Shown piece by piece: positions 3,791 through 16,710 of a stretch of DNA of 64,000 bases. Origin of the DNA: a virus; IMG/VR virus record IMGVR_UViG_3300036945_000368, positions 1 through 64,000 of that record. One strand, given 5' to 3'. A model generated the notes under the pieces. It saw only the letters and a list, made by a program, of their open reading frames with translations. It made no database searches and was not told the origin of the DNA. A program made the position numbers and the translations under genes. Numbering within the stretch: the stretch's first letter is position 1; every line of letters starts with the position of its first letter.

Positions 3791-4176
3791 GTGTTCTTCT
3801 CCTTGAGTTTGGCTTCAGTGGCTCTGGAAAATTGCTGTATTGGCCCGCCATTTCTTAGGTGTGTGGTGTACATCGCGCCATATTCCTCATCCGTCAGCCC
3901 AACCCATGTGCGTTGTTGTTGTGTGATGTAGAGCTTTTTGTTTTCCAAAAGTTGGGCCATTTGCAATTGCTCTGTGCTTCCGTTCCATAAGCAATTCATC
4001 GTGTCGGCAACTTCTTGGTAAGTGACGCTTGCAGGCTCACCCTGCTCTTGCTGTTCCAAGGTTTCTTTGATAGCGGTGATGGCTTTTCTTGCCTCATCAA
4101 ACTCAGGCTTTCCATTGTCCCAATACATCAGGTCATCCAACGCCTCCAGCGCCAGCTTCAATGCTTCTTTAGTCAT
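3787..4176 (-). CDS. Modular hypothetical protein (ALKLAL / RTWVGLTDEE family)
   Basis: Likely start MTKEALKLAL after AAGGTG. Confidence 0.78.
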   Translation of the reverse strand: MTKEALKLALEALDDLMYWDNGKPEFDEARKAITAIKETLEQQEQGEPASVTYQEVADTMNCLWNGSTEQLQMAQLLENKKLYITQQQRTWVGLTDEEYGAMYTTHLRNGGPIQQFSRATEAKLKEKNT

Positions 4177-5044
4177 ACGAACACCTTTCAATTAGTTGCA
4201 TTCCGTAGTTGTTGATTGTATCAGCAATCTCTAGACCATTGCGCTTAATTAGAAGATTATTTTTAAAGGGTCTATAGTCCACAGAATGATGCCAACGGTT
4301 AAACTTCCACACTAGCTTAGTTACATCAGGGTGCAAATCTACAAGCATTTGTGATTTGTTTTTAGTACCTTCATGGCGGTAGAATTCTTCGGTGTTGCCA
4401 CCCTTCATACGCTGTGTAGTTACCTTACCCTGCAAGAATGCATTGAACTGAATTGTACACCAACCATCCTTCAACATACGTAAGGATAAGTCAGTATCTT
4501 CATTGTATCTACCACGCCACTGATACTGTGCATTATTGTCGATAAGCAAACAAGAATAGATTCGTGTGTTTGTAATAAAAGGTGCTACTCTATCTGTTGC
4601 CTTTGCAAACGAATAATAATTAAAACCAGCTAACGGTACATTGGTATAGCGGTCAACAAAATCCTCGGCTGCGGCGAAGCAAGCACCAGTTTCTACTACT
4701 ACTTTCATGTTATGGTTTAGGCGATGGAATGCGTCTAGGTTATCGTCCATTACCCAATGCCGTTTGAAACCTCGGTGTTTTGCATGCCACCAGCAGAAGT
4801 TCCGCGCTGCACCGGGTCCCTTACTCAGCGTATTGCCTAAGCTATCACACGTATCATACTCGTCCAGCCAACTCTGAGGTAATACGAGGATTTTTGAAGG
4901 GTCAATCACCTTGGAGTACTCTAGGTATTCCTGCTCTTCAATAACGATGCTGTAGGGCACTCTCATGCGTTCTAGAGCCTTGCTAGTCAGTCGAGTATGT
5001 GCCCTACCCTTAGATACAATATAAATAGGATATTTAGGATTCAC
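4169..5044 (-). CDS. GREB1-like / TET-associated glycosyltransferase (GT-A fold)
   Basis: YPIYIVSKGR N-terminus, WVMDDN (DxD-like), YSCLLI, RGRYNEDTDL, MKGGNT motifs. Confidence 0.78.
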   Translation of the reverse strand: MNPKYPIYIVSKGRAHTRLTSKALERMRVPYSIVIEEQEYLEYSKVIDPSKILVLPQSWLDEYDTCDSLGNTLSKGPGAARNFCWWHAKHRGFKRHWVMDDNLDAFHRLNHNMKVVVETGACFAAAEDFVDRYTNVPLAGFNYYSFAKATDRVAPFITNTRIYSCLLIDNNAQYQWRGRYNEDTDLSLRMLKDGWCTIQFNAFLQGKVTTQRMKGGNTEEFYRHEGTKNKSQMLVDLHPDVTKLVWKFNRWHHSVDYRPFKNNLLIKRNGLEIADTINNYGMQLIERCSYD

Positions 5045-5279
5045 TTACGTGTCCCTCCGTGTCATCTACATACCTCTTATTTGCGTTGATACCTCGCTCT
5101 AAGAACGGATGCCAGATACTCTTAGTCTTAGCTGTAAGCTTTTGATTCACTAGGTTAGCAAACTCATCTAGGTCTTCTTGGTTACGAAAGCGAATGATAA
5201 TCTTAGCATAGGGTTCTTGCTTGTCTTGTACAAACTCAGGCATGCCTTTCCATTCGGTTTCTGCTAGTTCATGACTCAT
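5034..5279 (-). CDS. Small protein coupled to the TAGT gene (WKGMPEF...IRF...KSIWHP)
   Basis: Overlaps the TAGT start; motif typical of TAGT-adjacent phage ORFs (recalled). Confidence 0.75.
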   Translation of the reverse strand: MSHELAETEWKGMPEFVQDKQEPYAKIIIRFRNQEDLDEFANLVNQKLTAKTKSIWHPFLERGINANKRYVDDTEGHVSES

Positions 5280-5631
5280 ATACAGCTCCTTGTTCTTCAG
5301 CCATTAAAGCCGCCCATTTTAACCAAAAATAACGATCTTGTTGAGACTGAATATTAATATAGTCGCCCTTAATCTTAGACGATGGGAATAAGTTTGTAGA
5401 ACCTACATCACAACCCATTGCCTCTAAGCCTTCGTTAATAAATCCAAGAGACTCTTCATAAACAAACCAAGATTCTTCTACATCGATTAATTCTTCTAGT
5501 GCATTACTAATAGCACAGCAAGAATACTTTTCACCATTATATCCAAAATTATTGAACCAGTAATGAATATCATCAACAGCTAGGCATTTATCAGCTGCAA
5601 GATGCAATACTTCAGCAATATTAATTTTCAT
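5269..5631 (-). CDS. Hypothetical protein
   Basis: Likely start MKINIAEVLH after AAGGA; YSCCAI motif. Confidence 0.7.
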   Translation of the reverse strand: MKINIAEVLHLAADKCLAVDDIHYWFNNFGYNGEKYSCCAISNALEELIDVEESWFVYEESLGFINEGLEAMGCDVGSTNLFPSSKIKGDYINIQSQQDRYFWLKWAALMAEEQGAVYES

Positions 5632-5632
5632 A

Positions 5633-5923
5633 TTACATTCCTTTGTAGTTACGGACTTGAGAGGGAAAGCGTTGATAGCTTCGAATAGGGCTAACATCAC
5701 CAACGTTATTATAAACATAATCTGGCTTTTTACCATACTTTGCTTCGTAAGCTTTTGAGAATAAGTACATGTCGTAATCCTCTTCAAGATACGTAGTTTG
5801 ACCCTTAACGTAGCTATACAAGGTGATATCGTTGTAGATATCAAGATCGTACAATTCTGCAGTCTTAACTGCCAGCCAACCGTGACCAGCATCTGCGTAG
5901 AACTTGTAAGTTTTGTTTTGCAT
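5633..5923 (-). CDS. Hypothetical early protein (D.GHGWL...YLEED family)
   Basis: Start MQNKTY after AAGGA; TATACT promoter upstream. Confidence 0.72.
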   Translation of the reverse strand: MQNKTYKFYADAGHGWLAVKTAELYDLDIYNDITLYSYVKGQTTYLEEDYDMYLFSKAYEAKYGKKPDYVYNNVGDVSPIRSYQRFPSQVRNYKGM

Positions 5924-5980
5924 GTTTGAAATCCTTTGAGTAGTTAATGTCTGGAGTGAAGTATACAGCAAATTTTGGAC

Positions 5981-6008
5981 AAAAAAATACCCTAGGAAAA
6001 CCTAGGGA
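5981..6008 (-). terminator. Rho-independent terminator after HNH gene
   Basis: CCCTAGG-ttttt-CCTAGGG followed by T-run on minus strand. Confidence 0.8.
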
Positions 6009-6013
6009 TATTC

Positions 6014-6535
6014 TTAAATCAGTTTGTTGGACTTACTTATGTTTTCTTTTGCTGTAAGTATCTGAAGATTCCAAGGCACATGTAATCCGCATACTTTGTC
6101 ACTCTGCAGAGGAGAGATGTGGTCTACTTGATACTCTTGCCCAGTATATAGCTTAAAAGCTGCTGCGATTATATAAAAGTCTTCTATTTCTTGTAGCTGC
6201 TCTTTAGTTAACCATTTAGGTGTCGCATTTAACTTAGCTGCTCTGCGTTTAGAGGAAATAGCACAAATTTTAGCTTTATTCCTTTGCTGATAGTCTTTTT
6301 GATAGATAGCTAATCGGGATTTATTCTTTTTATTATAGTCTCTGCATCTAGCGTTTTCTTTTTCTTTATTAGTTTCTCTGTATATTTTACTTTTAACTAC
6401 TAACTTTTCTTTATTTTGAATCCTATACAAGTTTTTACAATTTTTACACTGACTTACATAACCAGAAGGTCTGTTTATTCTTTTAGTAAAGCATATAAAA
6501 TCTTTTTCTTGTTTACACTTAGTACATATTTTCAT
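6014..6535 (-). CDS. HNH endonuclease with N-terminal Zn finger
   Basis: CTKCK...CKNC; VDHISPL...CGLHVPWNLQILTAKEN; likely start MKICTK. Confidence 0.88.
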   Translation of the reverse strand: MKICTKCKQEKDFICFTKRINRPSGYVSQCKNCKNLYRIQNKEKLVVKSKIYRETNKEKENARCRDYNKKNKSRLAIYQKDYQQRNKAKICAISSKRRAAKLNATPKWLTKEQLQEIEDFYIIAAAFKLYTGQEYQVDHISPLQSDKVCGLHVPWNLQILTAKENISKSNKLI

Positions 6536-6538
6536 AAC

Positions 6539-6626
6539 TTTTCCGTTAACCCGTATAATTAAACGTAGAAGGCTCACACGGAAAATGAGCTTTTTCGAAT
6601 AAGGTAATTATGCTTACTCTATCTAC
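6539..6626 (-). ncRNA. Structured 5' leader (three-way junction plus pseudoknot to the RBS region)
   Basis: GTAGA/TCTAC, GAGTAAG/CTTATTC, GCTCA/TGAGC stems; loop TTTTCCGT complementary to ACGGAAAA before ATG. Confidence 0.65.
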
Positions 6627-6632
6627 AATTTA

Positions 6633-6661
6633 ATTATACTATTAGGTTAACGGTAAGTCAA
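6633..6661 (-). promoter_or_regulatory. Sigma70-type promoter of the HNH gene
   Basis: TTGACT-17-TATAAT. Confidence 0.85.
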
Positions 6662-6689
6662 TACCTATAATAGTCAGTTTACCTTACTA

Positions 6690-6914
6690 TCAAGGTTCCA
6701 TTGGTTCCTTCTTTACGCGAGTACCACAATCGTCACAATACGACCACAACCAGTGCGGTTGCGTGTATAGAGGACCACCGCAAGAATTGCAAGTCCAATC
6801 TTCGTCTTCATCTATCTCTGGTTTACAAATGATAGCTTCTAGATTCTTTGTGTAATTATCCTGAGAAATACTAAATGGGCGTGGTTTACCACCCTTACCT
6901 GCATCATGTGCCAT
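6690..6914 (-). CDS. Hypothetical protein with C-terminal Zn ribbon
   Basis: GKGGKPRPFS N-terminus; CNSC...CDDC. Confidence 0.72.
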   Translation of the reverse strand: MAHDAGKGGKPRPFSISQDNYTKNLEAIICKPEIDEDEDWTCNSCGGPLYTQPHWLWSYCDDCGTRVKKEPMEP

Positions 6915-7264
6915 TACATACCTTTCGATTTAAAATGCAAGATCATATCATCTAGCCAAAGCTGTCGAGTTAATTGTAACTTAATCCAAGTTTGATTGTA
7001 GTCTTTTTGGAGTTCTTCATATGAAACTTTACCTTCTGCAACCAACCAACTTTTTAGACAAAATTTACCATCTAAAAGGGTATTGATGTGACTTGAAATA
7101 GTATTTTTTGTTTCATCGTTAATCTCTCCTTGCTGCCACAAGTCCTTGATATTATCACAGATATATGGGGAGTTACCAGATGCATCTGTTTTATAATTAT
7201 CAGGTAGGCGTTTTTTAACACGTTTCAAAGCTTGACTTGGTTTAAGACTTGGTTTAGCTTTCAT
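6914..7264 (-). CDS. Hypothetical protein
   Basis: Likely start MKAKPSL after GGAG. Confidence 0.68.
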   Translation of the reverse strand: MKAKPSLKPSQALKRVKKRLPDNYKTDASGNSPYICDNIKDLWQQGEINDETKNTISSHINTLLDGKFCLKSWLVAEGKVSYEELQKDYNQTWIKLQLTRQLWLDDMILHFKSKGM

Positions 7265-7265
7265 T

Positions 7266-7709
7266 TTATTCTCCAAAGTTAATACGTTTATAGACAGCAA
7301 CAACACGCTTACGAGCATTGTTATTGAAAGTATCGATAACCTTACCGTTAACGACTGCAACAGCATGACCTGTTACGTTGACAATATATTCGCCACAAGA
7401 AGGTAGTTGTTCTAACAATCGACCAAATGTAATGCCTTCAGCCCAAGGTGTATCATCTACTGTGCGAATAGCAAACCTTGCGCGTTTACCATCGCCGCAT
7501 ACTTTAGTCAAACGGAAACCACACTCTTCATACGCTGCATGCAAAGTTTTGAATGTAGCCCCACGACGGTCTTTACGACCATGCTTTTTCAGTACACGGT
7601 GAGCTGTATCATATGCAATATCAGCTGCATTGGCTAAAGCACGTACTGTGCAGTCGTTAGTTTCAGCAGAGGATGTAACGCCACGGTCAACGGAAAGAAC
7701 TGTCTTCAT
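7266..7709 (-). CDS. Hypothetical protein, possible papain-like Cys-His-Asp fold
   Basis: NDCTVRALA...GHAVAVVNGKVID. Confidence 0.65.
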   Translation of the reverse strand: MKTVLSVDRGVTSSAETNDCTVRALANAADIAYDTAHRVLKKHGRKDRRGATFKTLHAAYEECGFRLTKVCGDGKRARFAIRTVDDTPWAEGITFGRLLEQLPSCGEYIVNVTGHAVAVVNGKVIDTFNNNARKRVVAVYKRINFGE

Positions 7710-7713
7710 ATCA

Positions 7714-7762
7714 ACTCCTTGTTAAGATGCGAGAAGTATAGCATAGATTTTGACCTATGCTA
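7714..7762 (-). promoter_or_regulatory. Early promoter-RBS cassette overlapped by an 8-bp inverted repeat
   Basis: AAAATCTATGCTATACTTCTCGCATCTTAACAAGGAG; TAGCATAG/CTATGCTA. Confidence 0.72.
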
Positions 7763-7823
7763 ATACCCCTACAGCTTAGTAGGAGTTATCTGAACTTTAT
7801 TAGCAGCACATACGATTCTTGAA

Positions 7824-8297
7824 TTATGCATGATTAGTTTCTAGGACTTTTTGGTGAAGAGCTGCTTTAGCTTTGTGAAAAGCTTCGATACTCTCAACAA
7901 AACTATTGAACTTGTCCTTTACTTTTTGAATGAAAGACTTCTGTTCAATTTCATTGATTTGTATGTCTTCAGCGTAATCATCTAAGGTACTGAAAAGATA
8001 GTCGGATAACAACAAGCACATGAATGCTCGTGGTTCCCACTCTTCGTAGCTATTGAAAGAAGTTAGCTCTGGCCCTTCGAAATATTTATCATCGTAAGTA
8101 TAACCAATCTCTATCATTAGGCGAGTCATTTTACTATATGCACTACGAACATTAGCAAAATTAGCCAGTTGAAAGCAAATACCTGCACGAATATTAATAC
8201 CATTGCCGTCATAGTACATACGTGCAATGTCAACTAAAGCGGGAATTAACTCTAGGCGTTGATCATAATCTAATGGTGTGTATAAATAGTCTTTCAC
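7824..8297 (-). CDS. Hypothetical protein
   Basis: Likely GTG start (VKDYLY) after AAGGAG. Confidence 0.68.
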   Translation of the reverse strand: MKDYLYTPLDYDQRLELIPALVDIARMYYDGNGINIRAGICFQLANFANVRSAYSKMTRLMIEIGYTYDDKYFEGPELTSFNSYEEWEPRAFMCLLLSDYLFSTLDDYAEDIQINEIEQKSFIQKVKDKFNSFVESIEAFHKAKAALHQKVLETNHA

Positions 8298-16003: not shown

Positions 16004-16710
16004 GCATACTCCTTCGGTATGTGATTATGCTTACTTATGTTTTCAAATGCAGTTAATATTTGCAAATTCCAAGGGACATGTAAGCCGCAAACTGTTTCAC
16101 CTCTGAGAGGTATGATGTGGTCTACATGATGCATTATACCTGTATCCAGAGTCAGTTGTTCGCAACGTTCGTAAATTAATCTAATTTGCTCTAAATGTTC
16201 TACAGTCAACCAAGAAGGAGTTGCTTTAAGTTTGGAAGCCCTGTATTTAGCATGATTAGCATTACACCTATCTTTATTTTTCTTTTTCCATGTAGAAGCT
16301 TGTTCCTTAACTTTAGTAGGATTATTTTGCCGATATTTTGCCGAACTTTGTTTATAATCTTCTGTAAAAATTGCATACTTAAGTTCATTCAATGCTCTTA
16401 GTATTTCTTTATTTTTCTCGTTATACTCATGCCGCGATTTTGCTCTACAAACTTTACAACAACTTCTGTACCCATCCGCACTGACCGATTCTTTAGAAAA
16501 TTCAAAAATAGGCTTCTCTGTTAAACAATCATTACAAATCTTATATGTCAAAACAGGGTAATTTTTTTGTGATAGTTTTGCAGTAATCTTTGATTGAGAT
16601 AGTCTACAAGACTTGCAGACATGTCGGTAACCAGTCTTACAGGAAGAACTTTTCGCAAATTGATTCAAAGGTTTTGTAAGATTACATTTTTTACAAATTT
16701 GTTCTAACAT
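15997..16710 (-). CDS. HNH endonuclease with two Zn-finger repeats
   Basis: CKKC..KP..F...CKSC twice; HVDHIIPL...CGLHVPWNLQIL. Confidence 0.88.
   Translation of the reverse strand: MLEQICKKCNLTKPLNQFAKSSSCKTGYRHVCKSCRLSQSKITAKLSQKNYPVLTYKICNDCLTEKPIFEFSKESVSADGYRSCCKVCRAKSRHEYNEKNKEILRALNELKYAIFTEDYKQSSAKYRQNNPTKVKEQASTWKKKNKDRCNANHAKYRASKLKATPSWLTVEHLEQIRLIYERCEQLTLDTGIMHHVDHIIPLRGETVCGLHVPWNLQILTAFENISKHNHIPKEYAW

Follow-up and report, generated by a model that had tools for sequence, protein, structure and literature searches.

Several homing endonuclease genes of the T-even phages (those for I-TevI, I-TevII, I-TevIII, together with segB and with mobE of Aeh1) are controlled by hairpins that sequester the ribosome-binding site (RBS), and this mode of control is established (PMC2988022). 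The hairpins are restricted to long early or middle transcripts, and the RBS is freed by a late promoter that the hairpin contains (PMC2988022). Homing endonucleases need to be expressed, but only minimally, and most of what is known about how this is achieved comes from the T-even phages. In the C4 and CI RNAs, loops base-pair with sites of the same transcript, and one of these sites covers an RBS; the CI RNA of P4 has two target sites. In phage P1, the C4 RNA and its targets share an operon, c4-icd-ant (PMC8198154). Here, we analyzed a leader RNA upstream of an HNH-type nuclease gene in 64,000 nucleotides (nt) of viral DNA (IMG/VR record IMGVR_UViG_3300036945_000368, positions 1 to 64,000; this whole stretch is called the window below). 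The leader lies on the minus strand and consists of a three-way junction of helices P1, P2 and P3, followed by two sites, A and B, that are complementary to the P3 loop (L3). It shares the principle of the T-even hairpins, namely that RNA structure conceals the Shine-Dalgarno (SD) sequence of a selfish nuclease gene so as to limit translation; here the pairing is a computed one. Our comparative sequence analysis suggests that it is probably a portable, cis-acting anti-SD leader, which would limit translation of the homing nuclease through the pairing of L3 with site B.

The leader and its P3 loop

The 67-nt junction alone (6562-6628) folded into P1, P2 and P3 in both its minimum free energy (MFE) and centroid structures, with an energy of -14.9 kcal/mol (z -2.48; 5 of 200 shuffles were as good). 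This MFE structure is the one given by the original prediction, which had been made from the letters of the window, and all the coordinates and minus-strand elements of that prediction, including the TTGACT-17-TATAAT promoter, were correct. The full 107-nt leader was of ordinary stability (z -0.72), and its centroid included the pairing of the loop with the RBS. Thus, folding energy alone proves little, and the decisive evidence is comparative. Ordinary whole-leader energy would also be seen if the helices were functionless chance inverted repeats in AT-rich intergenic DNA, but the comparative data refute that explanation and leave it a negligible probability: homologues with compensatory changes were found in many contigs, and loops match their sites at p <= 1e-5. 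A hammerhead or other ribozyme was rejected as a candidate; GAAA is present, but only UA stands in place of the CUGAUGA core, and no ribozyme model matched.

Homologues were gathered by protein-guided retrieval of HNH loci, DNA-pattern scans, nhmmer and covariance-model searches. Many IMG/VR contigs and one metagenome contig had homologous leaders immediately upstream of a nuclease gene. Most matches of the short-pattern scans of IMG/VR were due to chance, and the pattern TGTGGNATTTTATGGGAA gave no new leader. The only match in a DNA search of the named-phage collection was a weak one, to HNH-coding sequence of two Vibrio phages, with no leader among the results, and no leader was found beside any of 24 HNH homologues in bacterial or metagenome-assembled genome contigs. 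A covariance model built from HNH upstream regions, as originally suggested, yielded homologues in which both the helices and the L3:site B pairing change on both sides.

In an alignment of 14 leaders, 93.2% of the helix cells were paired, compared with 58.5% after shuffling, and 16 of the 17 helix pairs varied on both sides. The covariation score was 0.835, against 0.241 for shuffled alignments and at most 0.21 for slid partners. A 26-sequence alignment gave the same picture of pairing (93% of the cells) and covariation (16 of 17 pairs varying on both sides), which extended to all three helices. Compensatory changes were also seen in plain MAFFT alignments. There, P1 occurred as GUAGA/UCUAC or AGCAA/UUGCU and P2 as GAGUAAG/CUUAUUC or GUUAAAG/CUUUAAU, while P3 occurred as GCUCA/UGAGC, CCUCA/UGAGG, CCUUG/CAAGG, CCUUA/UAAGG and AGCAGC/GCUGCU. 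The closing pair of P2 was G.U in 14 cases and G-C in 10, and G.U pairs can be read on this strand only, which shows the RNA of this strand to be under selection. In near-identical leaders from freshwater metagenomes, a 1-nt deletion at 6591 turns the P2-P3 junction into GAAAA, and the rest of the leader is unchanged. On these alignments, the leader is confirmed as a real RNA with a conserved three-way junction; the fold and its conservation, like the covariation of the loop with both sites described below, can be read from them directly.

Upstream of P1, the sigma-70-type promoter TTGACT-17-TATAAT (6633..6661, minus strand) agrees with the consensus at 11 of 12 positions, and no better promoter-like site lies in 5000-8000. 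The promoter, with its -10 box 5-7 nt before P1, is conserved in the window and in L018, L087, L146, L127, L083, L011, L007 and L371, and its 17-nt spacing is kept in L018, L146, L127, L083, L011, L007 and L371. Since this distance is kept in the closest relatives, the predicted transcription start is probably the first base of P1 (G6626), as originally proposed.

The pairing of L3 with the region before the start codon was then compared among lineages (Table 1). In the window, the duplex of L3 with site B has 8 bp and an energy of -9.8 kcal/mol, and that with site A, found by a duplex scan at -21..-14, has 6 bp, including two G.U pairs, and -6.2 kcal/mol. Site B is therefore the stabler partner in the window; in other lineages, the two duplexes are of similar stability, or that with A is the stronger. 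At least 10 different L3 sequences were found, each matching its own downstream sites. In a matrix of duplex energies for the 14 leaders and six loop classes, the own-lineage loop was the best binder of every downstream region. Among 13 class representatives, the mean duplex energy was -6.6 kcal/mol with the own loop and -2.9 kcal/mol with foreign loops, and none of 100,000 permutations was as good (p <= 1e-5). Two sites were present in 12 of the 14 leaders, site A at about -28..-14 and site B at -14..-3 over the SD sequence. In a column-wise count of the L3:B pairing, both sides changed at all five pairs tested, and 67% of the cells were paired, a value lowered by shifts of register between loops of different length. 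On these comparisons, the loop-to-RBS pairing is under selection. The single RBS partner of the original prediction thus stood as site B, and a second covarying partner, site A (6550-6555), had been overlooked.

Table 1. L3 sequences and the partner sites found in the same leaders
L3 loop	Leaders	Partner sites
UUUUCCGUG	Window	A, UACGGG; B, ACGGAAAA
UUUCCGUG	L083, L007	A, CACGGG; B, CGGAGA
CCCCACA	L018, L087, L127, L146	A, UGUGG; B, UGGG
AUUCAUCAC	L011, L008a	A, GAUGAAU; B, GAUGGAG
CUCAUCA	L371	A, UGAUGA; B, UGAUGGAG
CUGUCCA	L010	A, UGGACAG; B, GGACAG
CUCCUCA	L013, L008, L024, L029, L015, third HNH gene of the window's own genome	A, UGAGG; B, UGAGGAG
AUUAUCCAC	L008b, L013b	A, GUGGAU; B, UGGAUAA
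CCUAAAU	L278	AUUUAGG
CUCCUA	L327	UAGGAG

The 80-kb genome to which the window belongs has no other gene start with a complement of L3, and its sole other copy of ACGGAAAA adjoining an ATG lies inside a 1233-amino-acid (aa) open reading frame (ORF). As a separate observation, site B contains an AUG in the CCCCACA-loop lineage, and site A would serve as its SD sequence. In L146 (1475-1579, minus strand), this AUG opens a 4-codon upstream ORF (uORF) with a UGA that overlaps the main AUG; it opens a 7-codon out-of-frame uORF in L127 (1831-1930, plus strand) and an in-frame 4-codon extension in L018 and L087.

The position of P1 at the predicted first transcribed base, the three-frame stops just upstream and the presence of leaders inside tRNA operons, which would need an insulated start, are consistent with a structure that mainly protects or processes the mRNA (a 5' stem against 5'-end-dependent decay) or insulates it from upstream translation, with little translational effect of the loop and SD sequence. 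However, this explanation leaves the covariation of the loop with two downstream sites through at least 10 sequences unexplained, and we consider it very improbable.

The loop of P2 (L2) has a self-complementary core. The 9-nt form NN-UAAUUA-N was also present in leaders that were not retrieved via that loop. Variants carry double changes after which the 6-mer is still self-complementary (UCAUGA in L007; UAGCUA in L303 and L253), with L010 (UUGCUA) as the exception. This 2+6+1 palindrome (UAAUUA, UCAUGA, UAGCUA) has the same format as the dimerisation loop of HIV-1, and it may serve in dimerisation or as a protein site. Hairpins with the 9-nt loop AGUAAUUAA are strikingly common in IMG/VR, with more than 117 stretches among the matches listed; among these, stems extended at least 3 pairs beyond the pattern in 44 of 99 distinct contexts, where about 5% were expected. 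Some manA RNAs (RF01745) have it as their 5' hairpin, and it also occurs in phage tRNA clusters, between tRNA genes beside a T-arm-like hairpin. The loci include L338:818-1027 as well as L333, L276, L329 and L343 (tRNA clusters). In the window's own genome, three hairpins with a TAATTA loop were counted against 1.0 expected, which is not significant.

Relation to the int-alpA motif

The Rfam search that had been suggested originally returned no match of the window copy to int-alpA (RF02996), either for 5500-7500 or for 6500-6680 (181 nt) at E <= 10, and the gathering threshold of the family (35.8 bits) was not reached. A sibling leader in the same genome did match: the leader of the third HNH paralogue (~69.5 kb in G000, outside the window) scored 37.9 bits, above the threshold, and the leaders L013 and L008 scored 40.0 and 39.0 bits. 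A covariance model built from the window's close relatives only (R1) retrieved these Rfam-positive leaders, namely L006 (the third HNH gene's leader; E 1.7e-4), L013 and L008, to which a second model (R2) gave 63-100 bits. Because the model of the window's relatives retrieves Rfam-positive leaders and the architecture is the same, we regard the window element as a divergent, AT-rich relative of int-alpA.

The int-alpA consensus reads P1(8)-UA-P2(4)-GAAAA-P3(5, loop ..CCuU..)-CU-P1'-U-rich-AgGG. It has the same three-way junction as the window leader, with UA between P1 and P2, GAAAA(A) between P2 and P3, and CU between P3 and P1. Both have a pyrimidine-rich P3 loop and a conserved purine site (AgGG in the consensus) about 10 nt after P1, and in both a complement of the P3 loop lies about 10 nt 3' of P1, which in the window is site A. 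The helices differ: P1 has 5 bp in the window and 8 in int-alpA, and P2 has 7 bp with a 9-nt loop in the window and 4 bp with a 5-nt loop in int-alpA. The context of int-alpA, a free-standing small RNA (sRNA) in the vicinity of integrase and alpA, was not found for the window copy, which has its own sigma-70 promoter and leads a homing nuclease gene of the HNH type in the early region of a lytic-type phage; the flanks of canonical copies were not examined for either gene. By its sequence and architecture, the window leader is an unrecognised variant of the catalogued, functionally unexplained int-alpA motif. The originally proposed unnamed RNA motif that travels with homing endonucleases is thus not nameless, and its association with such genes was borne out for the HNH, HNH_3/NUMOD4, GIY-YIG and Vsr-like types.

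Canonical int-alpA RNAs (50-67 bits; L396-L415) were present in one bacterial family, where 21 of 141 genomes had them. In these, the loop has two complements, one at about -28..-22 and the other over a GGGAGG SD sequence at -18..-11, and an ORF starts within about 40 nt after the RNA. The ORFs are diverse and unannotated; except for one DUF6387, they had no Pfam match, and they had no PADLOC match. Often, a small CGCC/GGCG hairpin carries the GGGAGG sequence in its loop. The layout of loop, site A and SD sequence in canonical copies indicates that the anti-SD reading applies to the whole int-alpA family, which, on this layout, looks cis-regulatory despite its sRNA typing. The motif is said to come from the 2017 work of Weinberg et al., the main text of which does not mention it. 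No function for int-alpA was found in Rfam or in a literature search, and the cis-acting anti-SD reading is a proposal of the present study. Two papers containing the term "int-alpA" mean a gene order and not the RNA.

Rfam types int-alpA as "Gene; sRNA". Such typing fits an alternative in which the junction becomes a small stable RNA of its own, either through processing or because transcription terminates or pauses at the U-rich tract after P1. It would then target sites A and B as a programmable antisense RNA, both in cis and in trans, and would amount to an immunity-like or cross-regulating system for cassettes with a common loop sequence. A near-consensus promoter, as in the window, would be odd for a gene that needs quiet. 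In addition, most AT-rich members have a U-rich linker behind P1 and a U-run stands in the Rfam consensus, the two complementary sites on one transcript recall C4, and the two leaders of the window's own genome have different, orthogonal loops. Like the window leader, C4 of P1/P7 (RF01695) and CI of P4 are small structured RNAs upstream of their target in the same operon. However, they are processed, trans-acting immunity RNAs of temperate elements, and neither a sequence nor a model match linked them to the window leader. P1 of the window has only 5 bp, two of which are G-C, and the tract GUUUAAUUAU is a poor terminator that the terminator scan did not flag. Pseudomonad-type int-alpA copies lack the U-run after P1, and the lack of L3 complements at other gene starts of the 80-kb genome also argues against action in trans. 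We consider this alternative unlikely.

The junction may instead be a sensor, either a riboswitch or the target of some phage or host protein (perhaps the nuclease), the occupancy of which chooses between L3:A (on) and L3:B (off). UA, GAAAA and CU are kept from AT-rich phages to GC-rich bacteria while the helices vary freely, a pattern typically seen where there is a binding pocket or tertiary core, and switches classically have two partners that exclude each other, as L3 does here. However, the genes downstream are unrelated to each other or to any metabolism, which suggests no common ligand, and different nucleases share the leader and the box upstream of it, which argues against nuclease-specific autoregulation. 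The window copy matched no known riboswitch family in Rfam. A sensor thus appears improbable. No result of the analysis indicated the ligand- or protein-responsive or autoregulatory switch of the original prediction, or self-cleavage.

The cassette and its nuclease gene

The features of the locus are listed in Table 2. At the 5' edge, the box TAGTAAGGTAAACTGAC (6673-6689, minus strand) contains stops in three frames and lies a constant 11 nt, A/T-rich in the window, before the -35 box. Its 15-mer GTAAGGTAAACTGAC is invariant in the window, L018, L087, L083 and L127 and has two changes in L146. The 15-mer occurs once in the 80-kb genome, and it was therefore rejected as a genome-wide phage promoter. 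Since the box is common to cassettes with different nucleases, it is no operator dedicated to one nuclease; it may be a site of the activator or UP-like kind, or may insulate translation.

Table 2. Features of 5981-6689 and its 5' neighbour, as read from the sequence (order on the minus strand: box, promoter, junction, site A, site B, ORF, terminator)
Feature	Position	Strand	Description
Stop codon of 74-aa gene	6692-6690	-	TGA; 5' neighbour of the cassette
5' edge box	6673..6689	-	TAG-TAA plus the 15-mer (6687-6673)
-35 box	6661-6656	-	TTGACT; spacer of 17 nt
-10 box	6638-6633	-	TATAAT; 6 nt from P1
Three-way junction	6565..6626	-	P1/P2/P3 with junctions UA / GAAAAA / CU
P1	6626-6622 / 6569-6565	-	GUAGA / UCUAC; 5 bp, then UA junction
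P2	6619-6613 / 6603-6597	-	GAGUAAG / CUUAUUC; 7 bp including one G.U
P2 loop (L2)	6612-6604	-	DNA CATAATTAC, RNA CAUAAUUAC; 9 nt, CA-UAAUUA-C, self-complementary core
Junction GAAAAA	6596-6591	-	Between P2 and P3
P3	6590-6586 / 6576-6572	-	GCUCA / UGAGC; CU junction, then P1'
P3 loop (L3), putative anti-SD element	6585-6577	-	DNA TTTTCCGTG, RNA UUUUCCGUG; 9 nt
Linker		-	GUUUAAUUA, between P1' and site A; site A starts 9 nt after P1
Site A	6555-6550	-	UACGGG; proximal second L3 partner; followed by UUA
Site B	6546-6539	-	ACGGAAAA; over weak SD GGA (7-9 nt before AUG); followed by GUU, then AUG
Start codon	6535-6533	-	ATG; 3 nt after site B
173-aa nuclease gene	6014..6535	-	HNH-type by motif; downstream of the leader
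Intrinsic terminator	5981..6007	-	Hairpin 6007-5990 plus T-run; 7-bp stem

Other cassettes are homologous from 6687-6689 onward. Metagenome contigs with homology in the upstream gene part from the window exactly at 6688, and L366, a relative with an empty site, does so at the stop codon of that gene. In L366, which has no HNH gene, the upstream gene adjoins the downstream one, with no more than a hairpin, a T-run and TATACTTC between them, which align with the terminator region of the window. L367 has a different inserted ORF of 78 aa, with the hairpin, the T-run and TATACTTC at the homologous position. Because relatives without the HNH gene keep the hairpin and T-run, the terminator is part of the resident backbone. 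The original view of a self-contained cassette therefore held for the promoter, leader and gene, which travel together, and not for the terminator. From these alignments, the mobile unit is judged to be the box, promoter, leader and ORF, at about 6008-6689. The interval between the 74-aa gene and the terminator is an insertion hot spot, being empty in L366 (2700-2830) and occupied by the 78-aa ORF in L367 (2734-3060) and by the HNH cassette in the window (6008-6692).

The 173-aa product matched PHROG 1035, "endonuclease VII" (E 2.7e-20), and also phrog_2340, "endonuclease". A DHIxP...NL...N core is invariant in eight homologues (D138, H139, I140 and P142; N156 and L157; N165, K168 and N170), and the surrounding motif vDHIxPL...WNLQ...ENxSKSN is nearly invariant in them. 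The protein had no Pfam, NCBIfam or PDB sequence match. The best PDB profile match, which was not significant, aligned the nuclease motif with the HNH domain of Cas9. An AlphaFold2 (AF2) model with a predicted local distance difference test (pLDDT) score of 84 had no significant Foldseek match in PDB, and HNH nucleases appeared only among the weak rows.

The genes behind the leaders belong to at least four folds: the window's HNH family, HNH_3 with or without NUMOD4, GIY-YIG, and the Vsr/DUF559 type. Outside the close, promoter-bearing subfamily, the leaders are promoterless and lie inside tRNA clusters or behind a structural gene. In the window's own genome, the second HNH paralogue (window 16024-16710, minus strand) is 5'-extended and has no leader. 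The third (G000 ~69003-69560, minus strand; L006:1495-2061) stands directly behind a conserved 114-aa gene, and its int-alpA leader has a generic anti-SD loop, UUCCUCA. In L010, a group I intron (RF00028, 90 bits; 4437-4663) lies about 800 nt downstream of the leader-bearing HNH gene. Three genes downstream of the cassette, at 4169-5044 on the minus strand of the window, is a TET-associated glycosyltransferase gene (PF20691, E 4e-50), a 92% identical copy of which is present in L367. By this match, the gene hints at hypermodified DNA in the phage.

Proposed translational control and known systems

In the mechanism that we propose, the cassette would be a free-standing homing endonuclease unit in an uncultured, freshwater-type phage of about 80 kb. 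Host RNA polymerase would probably start at the first base of P1, and the first 62 nt would fold into the int-alpA-type three-way junction with UA, GAAAA(A) and CU. The 9-nt P3 loop would act as a custom anti-SD element, pairing either with the decoy-like site A or with site B. The L3:site B pseudoknot, of about 6 bp, would hide the RBS and block binding of the 30S subunit; with the RBS hidden, only a small fraction of the transcripts would be translated and the nuclease would stay scarce. Site A would compete for L3 and would probably set the leak, or delay shut-off during RNA synthesis. Promoter, leader and ORF travel as a module, and the leader also occurs without the promoter in tRNA and other operons, before nucleases of several unrelated folds. 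Repression by the leader and the role of site A are what we infer from the conserved pairings.

Several points weigh against this proposal, besides the ordinary stability of the full leader. The pair counts came from covariance-model-fitted alignments, which favour the structure and inflate the counts somewhat, although the margin over the controls was large. Several members were retrieved by a pattern containing the P2 loop, so that the conservation of L2 is partly due to ascertainment. The 8-bp helix cannot form wholly within a 9-nt loop, and about 6 bp is realistic. The only contig from an RNA library that covers part of the leader (6497-6613) is that of a relative; it may be due to DNA carry-over and gives no transcript ends, strand or level. 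A strong consensus promoter before a translational brake is paradoxical unless the RNA is also a product. Finally, site A would free the RBS when it holds L3, and the net effect could be weak.

A further possibility extends the int-alpA-type junction to a general, portable and programmable riboregulator. Its P3 loop could be rewritten to match the RBS of any gene together with a decoy, its P2 loop would let leaders pair with one another or with further phage RNAs bearing this hairpin, and the released junction would act in trans, which would provide RNA-based, orthogonal immunity or cross-talk for nuclease cassettes and island cargo genes; this is distinctly unlikely. Apart from it, the natural re-programming of the loop and its targets suggests that the scaffold could serve as a small orthogonal translational regulator.

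If the anti-SD reading is correct, the leader would be a compact, modular solution to the expression of homing endonucleases, recurring before at least four nuclease folds in uncultured phages. The orphan int-alpA motif would gain a concrete, testable function, and the int-alpA-type family may be a widespread cis-regulatory device of mobile elements.

Compared with the T-even hairpins, the window leader differs in the place of its promoter, which lies upstream of the whole structure and not inside the hairpin. No promoter was detected inside the structure of the window; the only good promoter-like site on the strand was that upstream of P1, with T4-type late promoters not being modelled. The inhibitor also differs, as the loop of a hairpin in a three-way junction would act at a distance through a pseudoknot, whereas the T-even phages use a simple local hairpin. 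Furthermore, the window leader has a second, decoy site and belongs to a conserved, portable family, in contrast to the ad hoc hairpins of the T-even phages. Thus, a known job, the hiding of the RBS of a selfish nuclease, would be done here in a new way.

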